A stretch of 35,686 nucleotides of DNA from a virus (IMGVR_UViG_2923302340_000008), one strand, 5' to 3'. Positions 4,224-32,377 are shown, counted from the stretch's first letter. Program-made: numbers and translations. The notes: a model not told the origin generated them from the letters alone.

Positions 4224-4415
4224 TTAAAGACCTGCCGGGATTTCGATATTATCCTGGTGAATAACTTTATCGACCGGGTAACAGTTACCGGGAATTTTCT
4301 GTTCGGTTGCTGCAGTCATACACTCCTGCATTGTCCTGTGAACACTGACTGCAATATCAACTGGCTCTCCGGAAACAAGAAAAACTGTCAGAACAAGCGC
4401 AAATGCTGAATTCAT
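4224..4415 (-). CDS. ydfD: YdfD-like small lysis protein with N-terminal hydrophobic segment
   Basis: 63-aa product (MNSAFALVLTVFLVSGEPVD…) immediately downstream of dicB, with its start overlapping the dicB stop. Length and position match Qin ydfD. Confidence 0.7.
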   Translation of the reverse strand: MNSAFALVLTVFLVSGEPVDIAVSVHRTMQECMTAATEQKIPGNCYPVDKVIHQDNIEIPAGL

Positions 4416-4600
4416 TGTGCACATCCTTTTGGCATCAGACGTAAACGAGCCAGCATTGAAACAATGCATATTTTATTTAATAGCTCCCGTTCTTGTTTTC
4501 TCTTGTTAATGGCATCTTCAGTAAATACAGGGTTACTGATAGTGACACCAATTTCAAAACAACCTTCAGACGTATTAACGTTTGGTAATAACGTTTTCAT
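4412..4600 (-). CDS. dicB: Cell division inhibitor DicB
   Basis: 62-aa product MKTLLPNVNTSEGCFEIGVTISNPVFTEDAINKRKQERELLNKICIVSMLARLRLMPKGCAQ matches recalled DicB nearly residue for residue. A GAGGA RBS lies 8 nt upstream. dicF lies immediately upstream. Confidence 0.85.
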   Translation of the reverse strand: MKTLLPNVNTSEGCFEIGVTISNPVFTEDAINKRKQERELLNKICIVSMLARLRLMPKGCAQ

Positions 4601-4771: not shown

Positions 4772-4827
4772 AAACGGCGGCAGAGCAGTCACGGAGTAAA
4801 ACTGATACCGCCAAACGTCACCAGAAA
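4772..4827 (-). ncRNA. dicF: DicF small regulatory RNA (ftsZ translation inhibitor)
   Basis: The reverse complement of 4776..4827 reads TTTCTGGTGACGTTTGGCGGTATCAGTTTTACTCCGTGACTGCTCTGCCGCC, matching the recalled about 53-nt DicF sequence. A GGCGG…CCGCC stem and a U-tract follow. It sits directly upstream of dicB as in Qin. Confidence 0.85.
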
Positions 4828-5102: not shown

Positions 5103-5303
5103 ATGACTAAAGAAGAATTTGTCTCTTATATTTTTGATAAAACGGTTGAAATGTATGCCGCTACTTACGGGTCCTGTAATCCTCTGAATAAACCAGAGGG
5201 GAAAGATGATTTCGACAAAATTTACCGCTTCTTGGAGGATCGCTATATCAAAAGGTTAGAGGACGCAGGGATCAAATCCCCAGTGAAGTCACCATTGTCC
5301 TGA
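5103..5303 (+). CDS. Hypothetical 66-aa protein encoded on the strand opposite to the dicB operon
   Basis: ATG preceded by a strong RBS (AAGAAGGAAAtctatATG). Codon composition is protein-like. No recognisable family. Confidence 0.4.
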   Translation: MTKEEFVSYIFDKTVEMYAATYGSCNPLNKPEGKDDFDKIYRFLEDRYIKRLEDAGIKSPVKSPLS

Positions 5304-5649
5304 GAACTTGCAGGACGTCATGATCGTAACTTCCATCCAAACCGCGACGGCAAATTGCTTCTCGTATTACCGGAAGCAGTTCGCTGGAAATCTCGGTGCA
5401 TATTTCACCTGCTAATACGCCTGGTTCAAGTGAGAATATTGGTGAACTTACGGTCTTGGTCTCGACAGTTTCAGAGTCAGTGCCAACATTATAAAGCTCA
5501 ACGAAAGCGGTCTTGATTTTCCGGGCCAGATCTTTTGCTGGCTCGCTTGCAATATCTTTCCCGATTTCTCGCAGCACAGAATGCAATGTATGAGCTGCTG
5601 TTTTCTGTACATCAGACGGTAAATCTTTAAATTCCATCGTCAGCCTCAT
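5272..5649 (-). CDS. Hypothetical 125-aa protein of the dicB operon
   Basis: Its start overlaps the ydfA-like stop (TGATG), suggesting translational coupling. Composition is protein-like. Family unknown. Confidence 0.5.
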   Translation of the reverse strand: MRLTMEFKDLPSDVQKTAAHTLHSVLREIGKDIASEPAKDLARKIKTAFVELYNVGTDSETVETKTVSSPIFSLEPGVLAGEICTEISSELLPVIREAICRRGLDGSYDHDVLQVLRTMVTSLGI

Positions 5650-5801
5650 CAGTCAGTGTTTCTGGCTAACCAGCAACGCGCGCCAGATTCGGTTTTAAAC
5701 GTTTTGCTTTTGGTATATGTCATCGCGGTGAACGTACCGTCCTGGTTGGGGAACACGCCACATACCAGAGATTCGCTGTTGCCAAGATCGATAGTATCCA
5801 T
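5649..5801 (-). CDS. ydfA: YdfA-like small protein (first gene of dicB operon)
   Basis: 50-aa product MDTIDLGNSESLVCGVFPNQDGTFTAMTYTKSKTFKTESGARCWLARNTD resembles recalled Qin YdfA. It lies downstream of the dicA-like gene. Confidence 0.6.
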   Translation of the reverse strand: MDTIDLGNSESLVCGVFPNQDGTFTAMTYTKSKTFKTESGARCWLARNTD

Positions 5802-5914
5802 GCTGACCTCATTTCCCCTTAACGCCGGGGTAGCGGAACTGTTTGCTGAGAACACCGTGCGGTGTGTTGATGGAGGTGATTTGGTTTTCTCATTGTTTTT
5901 CGTCAAGGTTTTTT

Positions 5915-5936
5915 GATGAGAAAACTCAAGTATTGG
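5915..5936. promoter_or_regulatory. Candidate DicA operator in the dicB-operon promoter region
   Basis: gaTGAGAAAACTCAAgTATTGG is a near-exact copy of the site at 6450..6470. It contains the inverted repeat TGAG-aaaa-CTCA. It lies between the dicA stop and the ydfA start. Confidence 0.5.
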
Positions 5937-5993
5937 CGCAAGATAAAGCCAATACATTGAAATGTAAGGCTTTAAAATTTTGTGAAGGGATGA

Positions 5994-6401
5994 TTATTGA
6001 TGCTTGTTGCGTTTGCGAGCCTCTAATAGCTCGGTGAACAGGCGATTAAAATTCTCAACGCGGGCGCGGAGTTCGCTGAGTTGTGCTTGTTGCTCTGATT
6101 TAGGAAGTGCGCGATACAAACGCAGCATCTCTAACTCATCTTCCGATAAGTCTAAGGCACTATCGAGTGAAACAGGGGGAGCTGGTGTTTTGTCCTCGTC
6201 GCCAAACAGTATCCAGGTTGGTGAACATTGCAATACCTCGGCGAGGCGATGCAAATTTTGCCCGCGCGGGGCTGTATGGTCACTTTCCCATAATGAAATT
6301 GATGAGCCAGATACGCCAGCAGCTTTGCTTAAACCGTTTTGACTTAAGCCTACCTGCTTACGTCTTTCTCTAATGCGTTGACCTAAAGTTTTCTCGTTCA
6401 T
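5994..6401 (-). CDS. dicA: DicA-like HTH (XRE-family) repressor
   Basis: 135-aa product from MNEKTLGQRIRERRKQVGLSQ… with an N-terminal HTH and the motif LQCSPTWILFGDEDK recalled from DicA. It is divergent from the dicC-like gene. Confidence 0.8.
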   Translation of the reverse strand: MNEKTLGQRIRERRKQVGLSQNGLSKAAGVSGSSISLWESDHTAPRGQNLHRLAEVLQCSPTWILFGDEDKTPAPPVSLDSALDLSEDELEMLRLYRALPKSEQQAQLSELRARVENFNRLFTELLEARKRNKHQ

Positions 6402-6449
6402 ATTTAGATATCTTAATAACCCTTGACTTGAGATTCCTTGAGTGATTAG

Positions 6450-6470
6450 CATTGAGAAAACTCAATATTG
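6450..6470. promoter_or_regulatory. Candidate DicA/DicC operator in the divergent intergenic region
   Basis: atTGAGAAAACTCAAtATTGG with inverted repeat TTGAG-aaaa-CTCAA. It overlaps a putative dicC promoter (TTGACT at 6423..6428) and lies just upstream of the dicC RBS. Confidence 0.5.
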
Positions 6471-6478
6471 GAGGTGCG

Positions 6479-6706
6479 ATGTTTAAATCAGACGTAATTA
6501 ATTTTTACGGTACGAAAGCCAAAGTAGCGAAAGCTGCTGGCGTTGACCCATCTGCTGTTTCTCAATGGCAAGAGCTGGTTCCTGAAGGTCGCGCGATGCG
6601 TCTACAGGAGGCATCTGGCGGCGAGCTTCTGTATGATCCCAAGGTTTATGACGAATATCGTAAGACGAAGCGGGCGGGGCGGTTGAACAATGAAAATCAC
6701 TCCTGA
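6479..6706 (+). CDS. dicC: DicC-like Cro-type regulator
   Basis: 75-aa product with C-terminus …LVPEGRAMRLQEASGGELLYDPKVYDEYRKTKRAGRLNNENHS as recalled for DicC. GGAGG RBS. Divergent from dicA. Confidence 0.75.
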   Translation: MFKSDVINFYGTKAKVAKAAGVDPSAVSQWQELVPEGRAMRLQEASGGELLYDPKVYDEYRKTKRAGRLNNENHS

Positions 6707-7211
6707 ACAGGCTCGTGAGGCTCTGGATGCTTGGATATGTCGACCAGGAATGACACAGGAGCAGGCGACGATATTAATCACTGAAGCATTCTGGGCTTTG
6801 AAAGAGCGCCCGAACATCGATGTTCAGCGTGTCACAGATGAAGGTGGCGCGGTTGATCAGCGAGCGCTTGGCGTTAATCGAGTGAAGATATTCGAACGCT
6901 GGAAGGCTATCGACACCAGGGATAAGCGTGAAAAGTTCACGGCGCTAGTGCCTGCAATTATGGAGGCTATCCGGATTAATGATTTCAGGTTGTATCGTGA
7001 AATTAGTGACGGAAAAAGCATCACGTACATGATCGCCGGGTTAAACAAAGAATATGGCGATGTGGTGGAGTCCGGACTGCTTTTTGCTGATCCTGCCGTA
7101 GTGGATCGTGAAACTGACGAACTTATAGAAAAAGCAATTGCTTTCAAACTTGCGTATCGACAGCAATACCAACAAAAAGCTGGATGGAATTATGAGCCTT
7201 CTTTTTGCTGA
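6690..7211 (+). CDS. Phage early-region protein of unknown function
   Basis: 173-aa ORF beginning inside the dicC 3' end and co-directional with it, upstream of the replication gene. No recognisable motifs. Confidence 0.5.
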   Translation: MKITPEQAREALDAWICRPGMTQEQATILITEAFWALKERPNIDVQRVTDEGGAVDQRALGVNRVKIFERWKAIDTRDKREKFTALVPAIMEAIRINDFRLYREISDGKSITYMIAGLNKEYGDVVESGLLFADPAVVDRETDELIEKAIAFKLAYRQQYQQKAGWNYEPSFC

Positions 7212-8157
7212 ACGCCCACTGGTTATAAACACACAGCTTGCGATGAAGATTGGCTTAAATGAAGCCATTGTGTTGCAGCAGTTGCATTACTGGTTGAGAG
7301 ATACCAATTCCGGCATGGAATGTGATGGTGTTCGCTGGATTTACAACACAACGGAACAATGGCTGGAACAGTTCCCATTCTGGTCAGAGTCAACGTTAAA
7401 GCGCGCGTTTGCAAGTCTGAAAACGCTGGGGCTTTTGCGTTGTGAAAAGCTCAATAAATCAAAGCGCGATATGACCAATTTCTACACGATTAACTATGGG
7501 AGCGAGCTTTTAGATGATGGCAAATTGAGCGAATCCATCGGTTCAAAATGCGCCGCTCCATCAGGTCAAAATGACACGATGGAAGAGGTCAAAATGAAAC
7601 GCTCCATTGGTTCAAAACGACCCAATGTCATCGGGTCAAAATGGCCTGATGATCTTACAGAGAATACAACAGAGATTACTACAGAGAATAAAAACACTTT
7701 TCGTCCGGAAGCTTCGCAATCGGACCCGCAGACAGCTGAACAGAATTATTTAACCCAATATCCTGACGCGGTGGTTTTCAGTGCTAAAAAACGTCAGTGG
7801 GGGAATCAGGAGGATTTGGCGTGTGCGCAATGGATCTGGGCACGAATCGTGAGCCTTTACGAACAGGCCGCCAGTGATGATGGCGAGATCATGCGACCAA
7901 AAGAGCCTAACTGGACTGCCTGGGCTAATGACGTGCGCACAATGCGGATGCTGGATGGCAGAAGCCATAAACAAATTTGCGAAATGTTTGGTCGGGTTCA
8001 GCGAGATCCATTCTGGGTAAAAAACATCATGAGCCCTTCAAAGCTCCGCGAAAAATGGGATGAACTGGTCATTCGCCTGGGGCGTTCACCTGTACAGCGT
8101 TGTGTGAATCATATTTCTGAGCCGGACAGCGAAATTCCACCGGGATTCAGGGGGTAG
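7192..8157 (+). CDS. Replication initiation / replisome-organizer-like protein with N-terminal HTH
   Basis: 321-aa product. The N-terminal region (NTQLAMKIGLNEAIVLQQLHYWL) is HTH-like. Repeated SIGSK/VIGSK peptides are encoded by an internal iteron array, analogous to ori inside lambda O. Confidence 0.65.
   Translation: MSLLFAERPLVINTQLAMKIGLNEAIVLQQLHYWLRDTNSGMECDGVRWIYNTTEQWLEQFPFWSESTLKRAFASLKTLGLLRCEKLNKSKRDMTNFYTINYGSELLDDGKLSESIGSKCAAPSGQNDTMEEVKMKRSIGSKRPNVIGSKWPDDLTENTTEITTENKNTFRPEASQSDPQTAEQNYLTQYPDAVVFSAKKRQWGNQEDLACAQWIWARIVSLYEQAASDDGEIMRPKEPNWTAWANDVRTMRMLDGRSHKQICEMFGRVQRDPFWVKNIMSPSKLREKWDELVIRLGRSPVQRCVNHISEPDSEIPPGFRG
7537..7644. repeat. Iteron array (candidate replication origin) inside the replication initiator gene
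   Basis: Five copies of a GG(T)TCAAAA(T/C)G motif spaced about 23-24 bp apart, at 7540, 7564, 7587, 7609 and 7633. Confidence 0.6.
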
Positions 8158-8621: not shown

Positions 8622-10178
8622 ATGAATGCCTATAAATTCAGAAATAATGATGAGATTGGAAAATTAGAGGCGGAAACTGATTCTTATCTTGATGCTTGTT
8701 TTTATGAGTCCAATGTTTTTAAAGGTATTGTGAATTTTGACTCTACTGAGAAGAATCCTGATTTTACAAGAAGAATTATTGTTGGAAGAACAGGAAGCGG
8801 TAAGTCTGCGTTGCTTAAAAAAATATTAGACAAAGGAAATATTAAGCTGCATGACACAATAGAGGCAGAAAATACGATATTTGAACATATTAATAACAAT
8901 GTGTTTATATCTGATTTGATCTCGAAAGGGATAGATTTACGTGGGTTTTATAAATCGTTATGGCTGCATGTATTACTTATGAAAGTTATACCAGCCGTTT
9001 ATCGTTCTTCCTATCAAAGCTTTTTTGAGGAAATTAAAGATCTTATTGGTGGTAAGAAGAAACCGTATAAACCAGAAGTTGCGAATGATTATATTGAACA
9101 ATTTAAAGAAAATTTCTTCAATGATAAAGCGCTCATTGAAATAAGTAACAAGCTTGAAAGTGATTTGTCATTCAAACTCGGAAATTCCGCTGTTGGTGTG
9201 GGTGGTAAAATATCTAATTCTGATACAGCCAAAATACAATCAGAAACTTCAAGTTATGTGAGTCGTGAACTTCTTTTTAAACAAAAAGAACTTATTAAAA
9301 TACTTAAAGAGGAGTTCGCTGACTCAAACCAGGTTAGAATAGTAATCAGTATCGATGATTTAGATAAATCTTGGTTAAGCACGAGCGCCATCAGATATGA
9401 CTTTATTAATGCTCTTCTTGAGGCCTTTCGAGAATTATTAGATATAAAGTCGGTTAAGGTTCTGATATCAATAAGAACAGATATTTTAATGGGAATTTAT
9501 AAAAGTAGTTTAAGGCAGGATGAGAAAGATCAATCTTTAATATATTCCATATCATGGAATAAAACGGAAATAAGAGAGATTATTGATGCTAGAATTAACC
9601 ATTTGGTTAAAAATAGATATCAATCAAATAAGTCTGTATTAATGAAGGATATTTTTAATTTTACAGTTGAAGGTATTGGAGCAGATGATTATATCCTTGA
9701 CAGAACAATGCTTAGGCCTAGAGATGCAATTAATTTCGTAAATATATGTCTTTCTGAGTGCGATGGTATGGTTAACATGAATGAAAATATTGTGTTAATT
9801 GCCGAAGAGAAATTTTATTCGTCCAGAAAGAGAGCTTTGGTTACAGAATGGAAAAGCATATATCCGTTTATCGAAGAATATTTGGATGTGCTTTCCTTGA
9901 TTTCATTTTCTGATTTTACAGTCTCAAACATAGGACAAGCAGTAAAAGATGATATATCGCAGCATTTACTTGATAGATTGACTGTAGTTAAAGAGGATGA
10001 TCAACATACAAAAATATTGATGAATTTTGAGGAGTTACTTAAAGTCTGGTTCGTCGTAGGCGTGGTTGGCATAAGGAAAACAGTATCTTTAATTTTATAT
10101 TCATCTTTTGATAAACCTAATTTGGATATTACTGATATGAAGAGAGATTTTGTAATACATCCGTTGTTTGATAGGTAA
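8622..10178 (+). CDS. AT-rich P-loop NTPase of unassigned family (candidate defence or abortive-infection protein)
   Basis: 518-aa ORF. Walker A is IIVGRTGSGKSALLKKI near residue 55. Walker B-like VRIVISIDDLDKSW lies near residue 243. Candidate sensor and arginine motifs are ISIRTD and LRPRD. Base composition is markedly AT-rich versus flanks. A TATAAT hexamer sits at 8578..8583 and a GGAG RBS upstream. Confidence 0.75.
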   Translation: MNAYKFRNNDEIGKLEAETDSYLDACFYESNVFKGIVNFDSTEKNPDFTRRIIVGRTGSGKSALLKKILDKGNIKLHDTIEAENTIFEHINNNVFISDLISKGIDLRGFYKSLWLHVLLMKVIPAVYRSSYQSFFEEIKDLIGGKKKPYKPEVANDYIEQFKENFFNDKALIEISNKLESDLSFKLGNSAVGVGGKISNSDTAKIQSETSSYVSRELLFKQKELIKILKEEFADSNQVRIVISIDDLDKSWLSTSAIRYDFINALLEAFRELLDIKSVKVLISIRTDILMGIYKSSLRQDEKDQSLIYSISWNKTEIREIIDARINHLVKNRYQSNKSVLMKDIFNFTVEGIGADDYILDRTMLRPRDAINFVNICLSECDGMVNMNENIVLIAEEKFYSSRKRALVTEWKSIYPFIEEYLDVLSLISFSDFTVSNIGQAVKDDISQHLLDRLTVVKEDDQHTKILMNFEELLKVWFVVGVVGIRKTVSLILYSSFDKPNLDITDMKRDFVIHPLFDR

Positions 10179-10408
10179 TAGCAATGTGAATATGTTGAGA
10201 CTACTGGAAAAGCTATAACTCCTTTAGTAAAGTTTCCGTGGGTGCTTGAGGCTATCTGTCTCAGGCATGAACACCAAAGGCAGATAGAGAAAAGCCCCAG
10301 TTAACATTACGCGTCCTGCAAGACGCTTAACATTAATCTGAGGCCAATTTCATGCTAGACACATGTAGGTTAGCCTCTTACGTGCCGAAAGGCAAGGAGA
10401 AGCAGGCT

Positions 10409-10564
10409 ATGAAGCAGCAAAAGGCGATGTTAATCGCCCTGATCGTCATCTGTTTAACCGTCATAGTGACGGCACTGGTAACGAGGAAAGACCTTTGCGA
10501 GGTACGAATCCGAACCGGCCAGACGGAGGTCGCTGTCTTCACAGCTTACGAACCTGAGGAGTAA
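10409..10564 (+). CDS. hokD: Hok-family type I toxin (HokD/RelF-like)
   Basis: 51-aa product MKQQKAMLIALIVICLTVIVTALVTRKDLCEVRIRTGQTEVAVFTAYEPEE matches recalled Hok-family sequence. GGAGA RBS. An in-frame upstream extension from 10352 is present. Confidence 0.85.
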   Translation: MKQQKAMLIALIVICLTVIVTALVTRKDLCEVRIRTGQTEVAVFTAYEPEE

Positions 10565-10780: not shown

Positions 10781-11044
10781 ATGATGAACATGATGATGAA
10801 CATCGAAGAACTGCGTAAAAATTTTTGTGAAGATGGCCTCTATGCTGTGTGCGTTGAAAATGGAAATCTTGTTAGTCATTACCGCATTATGTGTTTGCGA
10901 AAGAATGGGGCTGCGTTAATTAATTTTGTGGATGGTCGAGTGACAGACGGATTTATCTTGCGCGAAGGTGAGTTTGTCACTTCATTACAGGCACTGAAAG
11001 AGATCGGAATAAAAGCAGGCTTTTCAGCTTTTGCAGAAGAATAA
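10781..11044 (+). CDS. Hypothetical protein
   Basis: 87-aa ORF with an AAGGA RBS and tandem Met codons. Family unknown. Confidence 0.45.
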   Translation: MMNMMMNIEELRKNFCEDGLYAVCVENGNLVSHYRIMCLRKNGAALINFVDGRVTDGFILREGEFVTSLQALKEIGIKAGFSAFAEE

Positions 11045-19433: not shown

Positions 19434-19793
19434 ATTAATATTAAATCGGATTATTTTTAGCGCTGAATGTGAAATTTAAATAAAAAGGACTCTTCCATGA
19501 GTCAAAATCCTTGAAATCTTAAGGGTAAGATAAAAGGTCATTAGACAGAATGACACGTTTTATTAATAAATAAAGCTATTGTTTCATTCGTGTGTTTTTC
19601 TTTACAAAAGTAATCCTTGCTATGGTTGGTTAATCATGCGTTAATGGTGTTCTGGTTTGTTACAAAATTATCTGAAGCAGTCATTGTTATAATTTTATTA
19701 TTTGTACCTCTTGAGATTTCCTTGTTGGTTTTTCTCTCTGATATTTTTTTTCGGACCATTCTGCCCAAGGGCTAACTTCTTCAAAAGGTAATA

Positions 19794-20009
19794 ATGATGT
19801 CTAACAAAATGACTGGTTTAGTGAAATGGTTTAACCCTGAAAAAGGTTTTGGTTTCATCACGCCGAAAGATGGTAGCAAAGATGTGTTTGTCCATTTCTC
19901 AGCTATTCAGAGCAACGATTTCAAAACGTTAACTGAGAATCAGGAAGTCGAATTTGGTATTGAGAACGGACCTAAAGGCCCCGCGGCTGTTCATGTTGTG
20001 GCACTTTGA
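19794..20009 (+). CDS. Cold-shock protein (CspB/CspI-like)
   Basis: [38 protein letters not shown]… carries RNP1/RNP2 cold-shock-domain motifs. A long AT-rich 5' leader precedes it. Confidence 0.9.
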
Positions 20010-20213
20010 GGTAGAAAATATTACAAACCATATTCACTTTAGATGCCCGTGTTGCCATGGTTCTCAGTATAGAACATCATCTTTTGATGTTTCTGACAGG
20101 AATCCTTTCGGGGCAAAATGTATCTTTTGTAAATCAATGATGATTACATTTGATAATATTTCACAATACTTAAATGTTAGCCGTCTATCGTTAGATTTAA
20201 GAAAGTGAAAATG

Positions 20214-26236: not shown

Positions 26237-28045
<1,809 letters not shown>

Positions 28046-31802: not shown

Positions 31803-32377
31803 TGGCATTCAGAATGAGTGAACAACCACGGACCATAAAAATTTATAATCTGCTGTCCGGAACTAATGAATTTATTGGTGAAGGTGATGCATATATTCCG
31901 CCTCATACAGGTCTGCCAGCAAACAGTACCGATATTGCACCGCCAGATATTCCGGCTGGTTTCGTGGCTGTTTTCAACAGTGATGAGTCATCGTGGCATC
32001 TCGTTGAAGATCATCGGGGTAAAACGGTTTATGACGTGGCTTCCGGCGACGCGTTATTTATTTCTGAACTCGGCTCATTACCGGAAAATGTCACCTGGTT
32101 ATCCCCGGAAGGGGAGTTTCAGAAGTGGAACGGCACAGCCTGGGTGAAGGATACGGAAGCAGAAAAACTGTTCCGGATCCGGGAGGCGGAAGAAACAAAA
32201 AACAGCCTGATGCAGGTAGCCAGTGAGCATATAGCGCCGCTTCAGGATGCTGTGGATCTGGAGATCGCAACGGAGGAAGAAACCTTGTTGCTGGAAGCCT
32301 GGAAAAAGTATCGGGTGTTGCTGAACCGTGTTGATACATCAACTGCACCGGATATTGAATGGCCAGCCCTACCGTAG
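31802..32377 (+). CDS. tfa: Tail fibre assembly protein Tfa
   Basis: 191-aa ORF overlapping the stf stop (TAATG). Size and position match lambda Tfa. Confidence 0.8.

Follow-up and report, generated by a model that had tools for sequence, protein, structure and literature searches.

Two related sequences on either side of a dicA-like repressor gene are very probably operators of a DicA/DicC-type lambdoid switch, Qin-like and related to P22 immC, with a predicted specificity unlike that of the K-12 system. They were found in a 35,686-base stretch of viral DNA (the window, by which the whole stretch is meant), and they belong to a larger set of operator-like sites in the same region (Table 1). 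Judged by its sequence, the locus belongs to a Qin-like lambdoid prophage, of which it forms the immunity and early-left region. The first-pass annotation of this DNA had assigned its genes correctly as a dicA-like repressor, dicC, ydfA and the dicB operon. The 135-aa repressor is 57% identical to K-12 DicA over 127 aligned of its 135 residues (E 3e-52), and its closest solved relative is the N-terminal domain of P22 C2 (1adr, 2r1j; E ~1e-15). On the minus strand dicA is followed by ydfA, an unrelated ORF of 125 aa, DicF, dicB, ydfD, exonuclease, xis and int. On the plus strand the DicC-like gene, preceded by a GGAGG ribosome-binding sequence at 6470-6474, is followed by a gene of the YdaT family (CII-like) and then by replication genes.

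Table 1. Genes and predicted regulatory elements of the locus; positions are counted from the first base of the window.
Feature	Position	Strand	Sequence	Remarks
DicA-like repressor, 135 aa	5994-6401	minus		HTH_3 above Pfam cut-off; recognition helix SGSSISLW
DicC/Cro-like regulator, 75 aa	6479-6706	plus		P22_Cro family above Pfam cut-off; 70% identical to DicC
ydfA-like (DUF1391)	5649-5801	minus		first gene of the left operon
DicF RNA	4775-4826	minus		Rfam, 72.5 bits (gathering score 48)
dicB	4412-4600	minus		left operon
Rem-like gene	10781-11044			antirepressor candidate
dicC-like (pR-like) promoter	6423-6452	plus	TTGACT (6423-6428), 18 nt, TAGCAT (6447-6452)	promoter scan
dicBp-like (pL-like) -35	5901-5906	minus	TTGACG	
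dicBp-like -10 position	5878-5883	minus	CAAATC	sequence as in the window
Oc-type operator (in site 2)	6451-6466		ATTGAGAAAACTCAAT	scan reference, 0 mismatches; AAAA centre, perfect 6-bp arms
Distal left operator (core of site 1)	5915-5930	plus (as written)	GATGAGAAAACTCAAG	3 mismatches to Oc (13/16)
Proximal left operator	5879-5894	minus (as written)	AATGAGAAAACCAAAT	3 mismatches to Oc (13/16)
Oa-like palindrome	6402-6417		ATTTAGATATCTTAAT	4 mismatches to Oc (12/16); abuts the dicA start codon
Om-like weak site	6427-6442		CTTGAGATTCCTTGAG	one good half-site; weakest assignment
Terminator-like hairpin	5945-5973	minus	AAAGCCUUACAUUUCAAUGUAUUGGCUUU	downstream of the dicA stop codon

The repeat and the predicted operator set

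Site 1, gatgagaaaactcaagtattgg, occupies 5915-5936, exactly as first annotated, and lies, as had also been said, in the promoter region of the dicB operon between dicA and ydfA. Site 2, attgagaaaactcaatattgg, has the coordinates 6451-6471 and not, as given before, 6450-6470, a shift of one base to the right. The two had been described as matching at 20 of 21 positions, which did not hold: without gaps they agree at 15 of 21, and with a gap of 1 nt, needed for an extra g at 5930, at 19 bases (13 + 6). Their likeness consists of 13 contiguous bases, the 1-nt indel and the hexamer TATTGG. The inverted repeat TGAG-aaaa-CTCA reported for both sites is present, although it is better written (A/T)TGAG-AAAA-CTCAA. 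Site 2 contains a perfect 6+4+6 pseudo-palindrome, ATTGAG-AAAA-CTCAAT, the functional unit being 16 bp.

The exact 13-mer common to both sites, TGAGAAAACTCAA (5917-5929 and 6453-6465), has no other exact copy on either strand of the 35,686 bases, with about 0.0014 copies expected from the base composition. In Markov simulations matched to the two intergenic regions in size and composition, a shared exact word of at least 13 nt arose in 2 of 5000 runs (P ~4e-4). Matches to the 13-mer with up to two mismatches cluster in the immunity region, and at three mismatches there is no enrichment in the window (19 found, 14.7 expected). Both sites are non-coding. The ORFs that run across them, 5649-5957 on the minus strand and 6452-6706 on the plus strand, are upstream extensions of ydfA and dicC, and these extensions are absent from the RefSeq annotation of near-identical loci.

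The TATTGG tail (5931-5936 and 6466-6471) was considered as part of the operator and rejected, because it aligns only with the 1-nt gap and is not conserved in loci L003, L010 and L011, which include a 90%-identical relative in E. coli (L003) and Buttiauxella. The copy at site 2 enters the ribosome-binding sequence of dicC, and the copy at site 1 is a hairpin arm: in an alternative stem, bases 5930-5937 (GTATTGGC) pair with 5948-5955 (GCCAATAC) and take in the whole tail.

The window was scanned over its full length with the Oc 16-mer, allowing up to four mismatches. Five places were found, four of them in the immunity region (starting at 5879, 5915, 6402 and 6451). The fifth, GATGAGAAAGATCAAT at 9519-9534 with four mismatches, was treated as a chance match since it falls inside a coding region, one that matches the P-loop ATPase gene of L002, and has no partner site. 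The proximal left, Oa-like and Om-like sites had all been missed in the first annotation. The centre of the three best operators is AAAA; in the distal and proximal left sites it stands in opposite orientation, and this is conserved in 4/4 loci with sites of the TTGAG type.

Site 2 does lie in the dicA/dicC intergenic region, but the overlap with TTGACT that had been claimed for it was not confirmed. It begins 22 nt downstream of that hexamer, at the fifth base of the -10-like TAGCAT, so that the Oc-type operator extends over the final 2 nt of the -10 and over the expected start point. The Om-like site overlaps the 3' end of the -35 and the spacer of the same promoter. On the left, the order along the sense strand of dicA is hairpin, distal operator, 8 nt, TTGACG, a 17-nt spacer that holds most of the proximal operator, and the -10, which the proximal operator overlaps. 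The centre of the distal operator is about 19 bp from that of the -35, and the two left operators, 36 bp apart (about 3.4 helical turns, a spacing not obviously suited to face-to-face cooperativity), flank the -35 hexamer.

Comparison with K-12, related phages and other loci

The architecture of the Qin (Kim) immunity region of K-12 was described by Bejar et al. in 1986 and 1988, according to PMC10448788 and PMC3441716, and the DicA/DicC system was taken up again by Yun et al. 2012 (PMC3441716) and by Ragunathan and Vanderpool 2023 (PMC10448788); our description of the left operators of K-12 is based on the later papers and on an alignment made here. The gene order is the same, ydfA-...-dicF-dicB and dicA with divergent dicC-ydaT/ydfX, except that K-12 has ydfB/ydfC where the window has the unrelated 125-aa ORF. 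The promoter skeleton is also shared (right, TTGACT-17/18-(-10); left, TTGACx-17-TAAnnT), the right promoter being TTGACT-17-TATCTT in K-12 whereas the window has a spacer of 18 nt and the -10 TAGCAT. In both, the -10 on the dicC side is overlapped by an operator and the left -35 stands between two operator-like sites, the K-12 counterpart of the proximal left operator being GTTAGTCATGGCTAAT.

In K-12, Oc has been shown to be a DicA site in vivo, through which dicC is repressed and dicA activated; single base changes in it abolish binding, and the start point of dicC has been mapped by 5'RACE (PMC3441716). In the alignment of the dicA-dicC intergenic regions that had been proposed as a check, site 2 fell within 1-2 nt of the position of this operator. 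The sequences themselves are different. The K-12 Oc is TTGTTAGTCATAACTAACAA, which on the strand of the window reads TTGTTAGTTATGACTAACAA, and has the core TTAG-N6-CTAA against ATTGAG-AAAA-CTCAAT in the window. Cross-type matches reached only 9-10/16 (10/16 for the Oc of the window against the left region of K-12, 9/16 for the K-12 Oc against the left region of the window), and the recognition helices differ, SHVSVSQW in K-12 DicA and SGSSISLW here, so that an immunity specificity in common with K-12 DicA was not found. From the low cross-type operator match and the different helices the two types are predicted to be heteroimmune.

The immunity type of the window is that of the temperate phages mEp460 (LR597641.1) and HannyBb (PP925841.1). 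Each is 99.5% identical to the window over 5802-6710 (909 nt), with five differences, of which four of five in mEp460 and three of five in HannyBb lie in or near the left promoter and leader. In mEp460 neither the repressor gene nor dicC departs from the window; HannyBb carries single substitutions at 6630, in dicC, and at 6444, between dicA and dicC. Neither phage differs from the window in the distal left operator or in Oc, and each has a single change, at 5883, in the proximal left operator. Of 5,426 complete E. coli genomes, 458 contain a 75-nt segment of the left promoter. No description of the operators of mEp460-type immunity was found in the literature searched, where mEp460 appears in mentions from prophage annotation only.

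Besides K-12 (L001), the window was compared with four more E. coli loci, which represent three further immunity types (L003-L007), and with representatives of other species that were identified from the repressor protein (Buttiauxella, Citrobacter, Symbiopectobacterium, Yersinia and Rosenbergiella). The operator matrix holds 12 locus labels, the window included; L019 and L020, with repressors 44-49% identical, have a different intergenic layout and were left out. In all 12 loci, which span several immunity types, an Oc-like 16-mer stands at a distance of 49-51 nt from the dicA start, and the left -35 is flanked by two related 16-mers spaced 34-36 bp apart; a TTGACx-like hexamer stands between the two left operators in 13/13 loci. 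Sites of the form TTGAG-N4-CTCAA were found in the window, L003 and two Buttiauxella loci, and TTAG-N6-CTAA sites in K-12, strain B and the remaining loci. The best match of Oc to the left regions is 13-16/16 within the TTGAG group compared with 8-12/16 from TTGAG to TTAG. The repressor recognition helix is SGSSISLW in the TTGAG type and (S/A)HV(S/T)(V/I)SQW in the TTAG types. Operator sequence thus covaries with the recognition helix of the repressor between immunity types. The putative recognition helix of DicC also differs, DPSAVSQW in the TTGAG type and RLAS(L/V)xxW in the TTAG types.

Between E. coli and Buttiauxella, whose repressors are 74-76% identical, the operators stand out as islands of conservation. 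Invariant columns number 12/16 in the distal, 10/16 in the proximal and 14/16 in the Oc-type operator, against 22/90 in the left flanks. In the hairpin 17/29 columns are invariant. The Oa-like site is invariant in 16/16 columns and the Om-like site in 12/16, although the conservation of the former may instead reflect the translation-initiation region of dicA.

Taken with the K-12 precedent, this comparison of 12 loci supports the layout proposed at first, in which one repressor would control two promoters. That proposal was incomplete, as it lacked the core-promoter, Oa-like and Om-like sites, and repressor binding in the window is deduced from sequence.

The -10 sequence of the left promoter

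Over 5425-7788 the window differs from the closest complete genome (L002) at three positions only, 5878, 5883 and 5895, all of them A-to-G on the plus strand and within 18 bp. On the promoter strand the changes at 5878 and 5883 turn the -10 TAAATT into CAAATC, so that the T is lost at both -12 and -7, and the change at -12 also weakens the proximal left operator. Elsewhere the -10 is TAAATT (mEp460, HannyBb, L002, L003 and others) or TAAnnT at 17-18 nt, the -10 and -35 of L005, L016 and L017 having been read by eye at an alternative spacing or with an alternative -35. The -7 allele is also present in strain LR-29-1 and the spacer allele in phage HannyBb. The combination was not found in 5,426 complete E. 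coli genomes (none at least 99% identical to a 75-mer). A search of IMG/VR for the -10 allele with an exact 20-mer gave nothing, and the seven matches in a search of JGI metagenomes were all to unrelated sequence.

CAAATC is probably a promoter-down allele of the toxic early-left operon, although it may be a sequencing artefact. With this -10 the left promoter of the window may be nearly dead, and repression there would then have little to act on. Promoter decay may add to repression in silencing the DicF/dicB operon of the window.

Proposed mode of action and competing readings

From the observed sequences, positions, statistics, conservation and covariation we infer binding, repression, activation and cooperativity at the sites of the window as follows. 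A dimer of the 135-aa repressor would recognise ATTGAG-AAAA-CTCAAT, with the outer 6 bp read by the helix-turn-helix and the central A-tract probably read indirectly, as in P22 C2. The operators of P22 are rotationally symmetric, their central 4 bp are not contacted, and those with an A-tract centre bind best (PMC4267663); the invariant AAAA centre of the three best sites fits such indirect readout. The likeness has its limits, in that P22 operators are 18 bp long with 7 contacted bp per half, whereas the sites in the window are 16 bp (6+4+6) with another half-site, and in that P22 C2 has 216 aa and DicA-type repressors are much shorter.

On Oc, the strongest site, the repressor would block RNA polymerase and keep dicC, the ydaT-like gene and the replication genes silent, and by analogy with K-12 it would also stimulate transcription of dicA. 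Occupancy of the proximal left site would exclude polymerase from the promoter of ydfA-DicF-dicB-exo-xis-int, and the distal left site probably adds occupancy or cooperativity. In K-12, DicA in vivo bound Oc only, neither Oa nor Om (PMC3441716); by this analogy the weaker sites, Oa, Om and possibly the left sites with 13/16 matches, may not be occupied alone. The Cro-like DicC would be expected at the same sites with another order of preference, giving a bistable switch. In K-12, DicC is needed for spontaneous switching, the antirepressor Rem relieves repression, and DicA is without the bond cleaved through RecA (PMC10448788). Since the repressor of the window is short like K-12 DicA, induction would be expected to proceed through an antirepressor, for which the Rem-like gene is a candidate, and not through RecA cleavage.

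Lambda follows the same logic, with the repressor gene between a right set of operators, shared with the divergent cro promoter, and an early-left set, and it is bistable. However, CI and Cro of lambda are not close relatives of the proteins of the window, lambda has three left sites 20-24 bp apart over the -35 and -10 whereas the window has two clear sites flanking the -35, and the left and right sets in the window, unlike those of lambda, are only about 0.5 kb apart.

One alternative is that the sites serve mainly DicC or a YdaT/CII-like protein, the repressor binding only the perfect site on the dicC side and the left sites belonging to the lytic side. The occupancy of Oc only by K-12 DicA in vivo would fit this, as would the effect of DicC on switching of dicBp (PMC10448788) and the difference in the putative DicC helix between immunity types. 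On the other hand, K-12 DicA represses dicBp 22-fold without DicC (PMC10448788), so a DicA site is needed there, and the YdaT site of Rac, ATGATT-n6-AATCAA (PMC11879457), is unrelated to the motif. We consider this alternative unlikely; it also overlaps with the operator reading, because repressor and Cro of lambdoid phages share operators, and is a refinement of it and not a true competitor.

It is a good deal less probable that site 1 is primarily a stop for dicA transcription, acting as a U-rich tract after a hairpin or as a roadblock, with its likeness to site 2 secondary. On the sense strand of dicA the site reads UUGAGUUUUCUCAU and follows hairpins with z-scores of -3.4 to -5.9, and in the Buttiauxella locus L010 the left arm of the operator is itself paired into a hairpin. 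A consensus terminator scan, however, called no terminator at site 1 or its hairpin. The pairing and the hairpin partner vary from locus to locus, and L003 has lost the adjoining stem with the operator core intact. Moreover, the whole palindrome is conserved, including the arm distal to the hairpin, and at the equivalent position the TTAG-type loci carry an operator in their own version of the sequence, with no T-tract.

The probability that the repeat is a chance similarity, or a functionless remnant of a duplicated (coding) segment, is close to nil: the repeat is short, the region AT-rich and the 13-mer not enriched at three mismatches, but the exact match has a P of ~4e-4, the closer matches are concentrated in the immunity region, in annotated relatives both copies lie between genes and not in coding sequence (a coding duplication being what the first-pass annotation had named as grounds for giving up its proposal), and the sites are conserved in Buttiauxella despite diverged flanks and covary with repressor type, so that statistics and comparative evidence together exclude it.

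Within the operator reading, the position of the distal site, directly after the dicA hairpin and about 0.5 kb from Oc, allows the further and rather improbable idea that repressor bound there is a roadblock to read-through from dicA into toxic DicF/dicB, or loops with Oc around the repressor gene. If the loop were true, it would be a miniature of the OL-OR loop of lambda and would couple repression of the division inhibitor to the autoregulation of dicA. The conserved opposite orientation of AAAA in the left sites would gain a meaning if either were true.

The known picture of lambdoid switches is unchanged by these results, the layout being already textbook. Specific here are the mEp460-type operator sequence, its covariation with the helix and the consistent layout of two sites around the left -35. 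For K-12, operator-like sequences have been described in both intergenic regions (PMC10448788), and one source gives the position of the DicA site at dicB as unknown or of low evidence (PMC7567609); in our comparison every type, including K-12, has two candidate DicA sites that bracket the dicBp -35. The result is a predicted operator set for a common immunity type of E. coli prophages, present in hundreds of genomes. It offers a natural specificity pair for P22 C2-like helix-turn-helix proteins, TTAG with HV(S/T)(V/I)SQ and TTGAG with GSSISL, and predicts which of the Qin-like prophages would be heteroimmune.

The dicB-operon promoter

Between 5425 and 7788 the window differs from the closest complete genome (L002) at only three positions, 5878, 5883 and 5895, all of which are A-to-G changes located inside 18 bp. 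In the window the -10 element of the dicB-operon promoter is converted from TAAATT to CAAATC, with loss of the T at both -12 and -7. Judged from the sequence, CAAATC is probably a promoter-down allele of this toxic operon. The combination of the three changes was absent from all collections searched, comprising 5,426 E. coli genomes, IMG/VR and the JGI metagenomes. The A-to-G differences at these positions would also be expected to make the proximal operator of this promoter weaker.

Further features of the window

The features listed in the table include five Rfam matches, which were counted when above the gathering scores, and these five elements are cargo typical for Qin-like prophages. The 125-aa ORF gave no match in a Pfam search and stands where K-12, in contrast, has ydfB/ydfC. 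The hairpin following dicA is probably the dicA terminator, and the TTTCAATGT motif shows no variation between E. coli and Buttiauxella. The K-12 counterpart, ATCAATGAGTTA, is presumably also similar to an IHF consensus. The start of the Rem-like gene carries a 12-nt tandem duplication, the window reading MMNM-MMNIEEL against MMNIEEL in L002. The antirepressor that acts on DicA in K-12 is Rem (PMC10448788).

Features located in the window
Feature	Coordinates	Strand	Remark
DicF	4775-4826	-	Rfam
125-aa ORF	5272-5649	-	between ydfA and DicF
hairpin AAAGCCUUACAUUUCAAUGUAUUGGCUUU	5945-5973	-	conserved; directly past the dicA stop codon
sok antitoxin	10240-10414	+	Rfam; adjoins hokD
Rem-like antirepressor gene	10781-11044	+	
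cspA thermoregulator	19639-20055	+	Rfam
isrC	27399-27521	-	Rfam
IS009	32145-32343	+	Rfam

Predicted operators of the window and of related loci

The AAAA centre of the operators is asymmetric and its orientation is fixed in each of the three sites, 5915-5930 (distal left), 5879-5894 (proximal left) and 6451-6466 (Oc, at the dicC promoter). In the sense orientation of dicA, the centre is TTTT in both Oc and the distal left site and AAAA in the proximal left site, a pattern kept in all four loci with TTGAG-type half-sites.

Two loci, L008 and L009, encode a repressor 100% identical to that of the window, their source MAGs being labelled Bacillota and Veillonella parvula; both are almost certainly misbinned E. 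coli prophage contigs. The operator set of the Citrobacter braakii locus (L012; 1100-1200 and 1609-1750) was found to be a hybrid. Its Oa, the site adjoining the dicA start (GTTTAGATATCTTAAT), is one base off the window type, and its Oc (GTTAAATAAACTCAAC) and left sites are a mixture of TTGAG-like and TTAA/TTAG-like half-sites. The repressor of this locus is 67% identical to that of the window and differs in the helix-turn-helix. On these sequence comparisons, the specificity of the Citrobacter locus may be intermediate.
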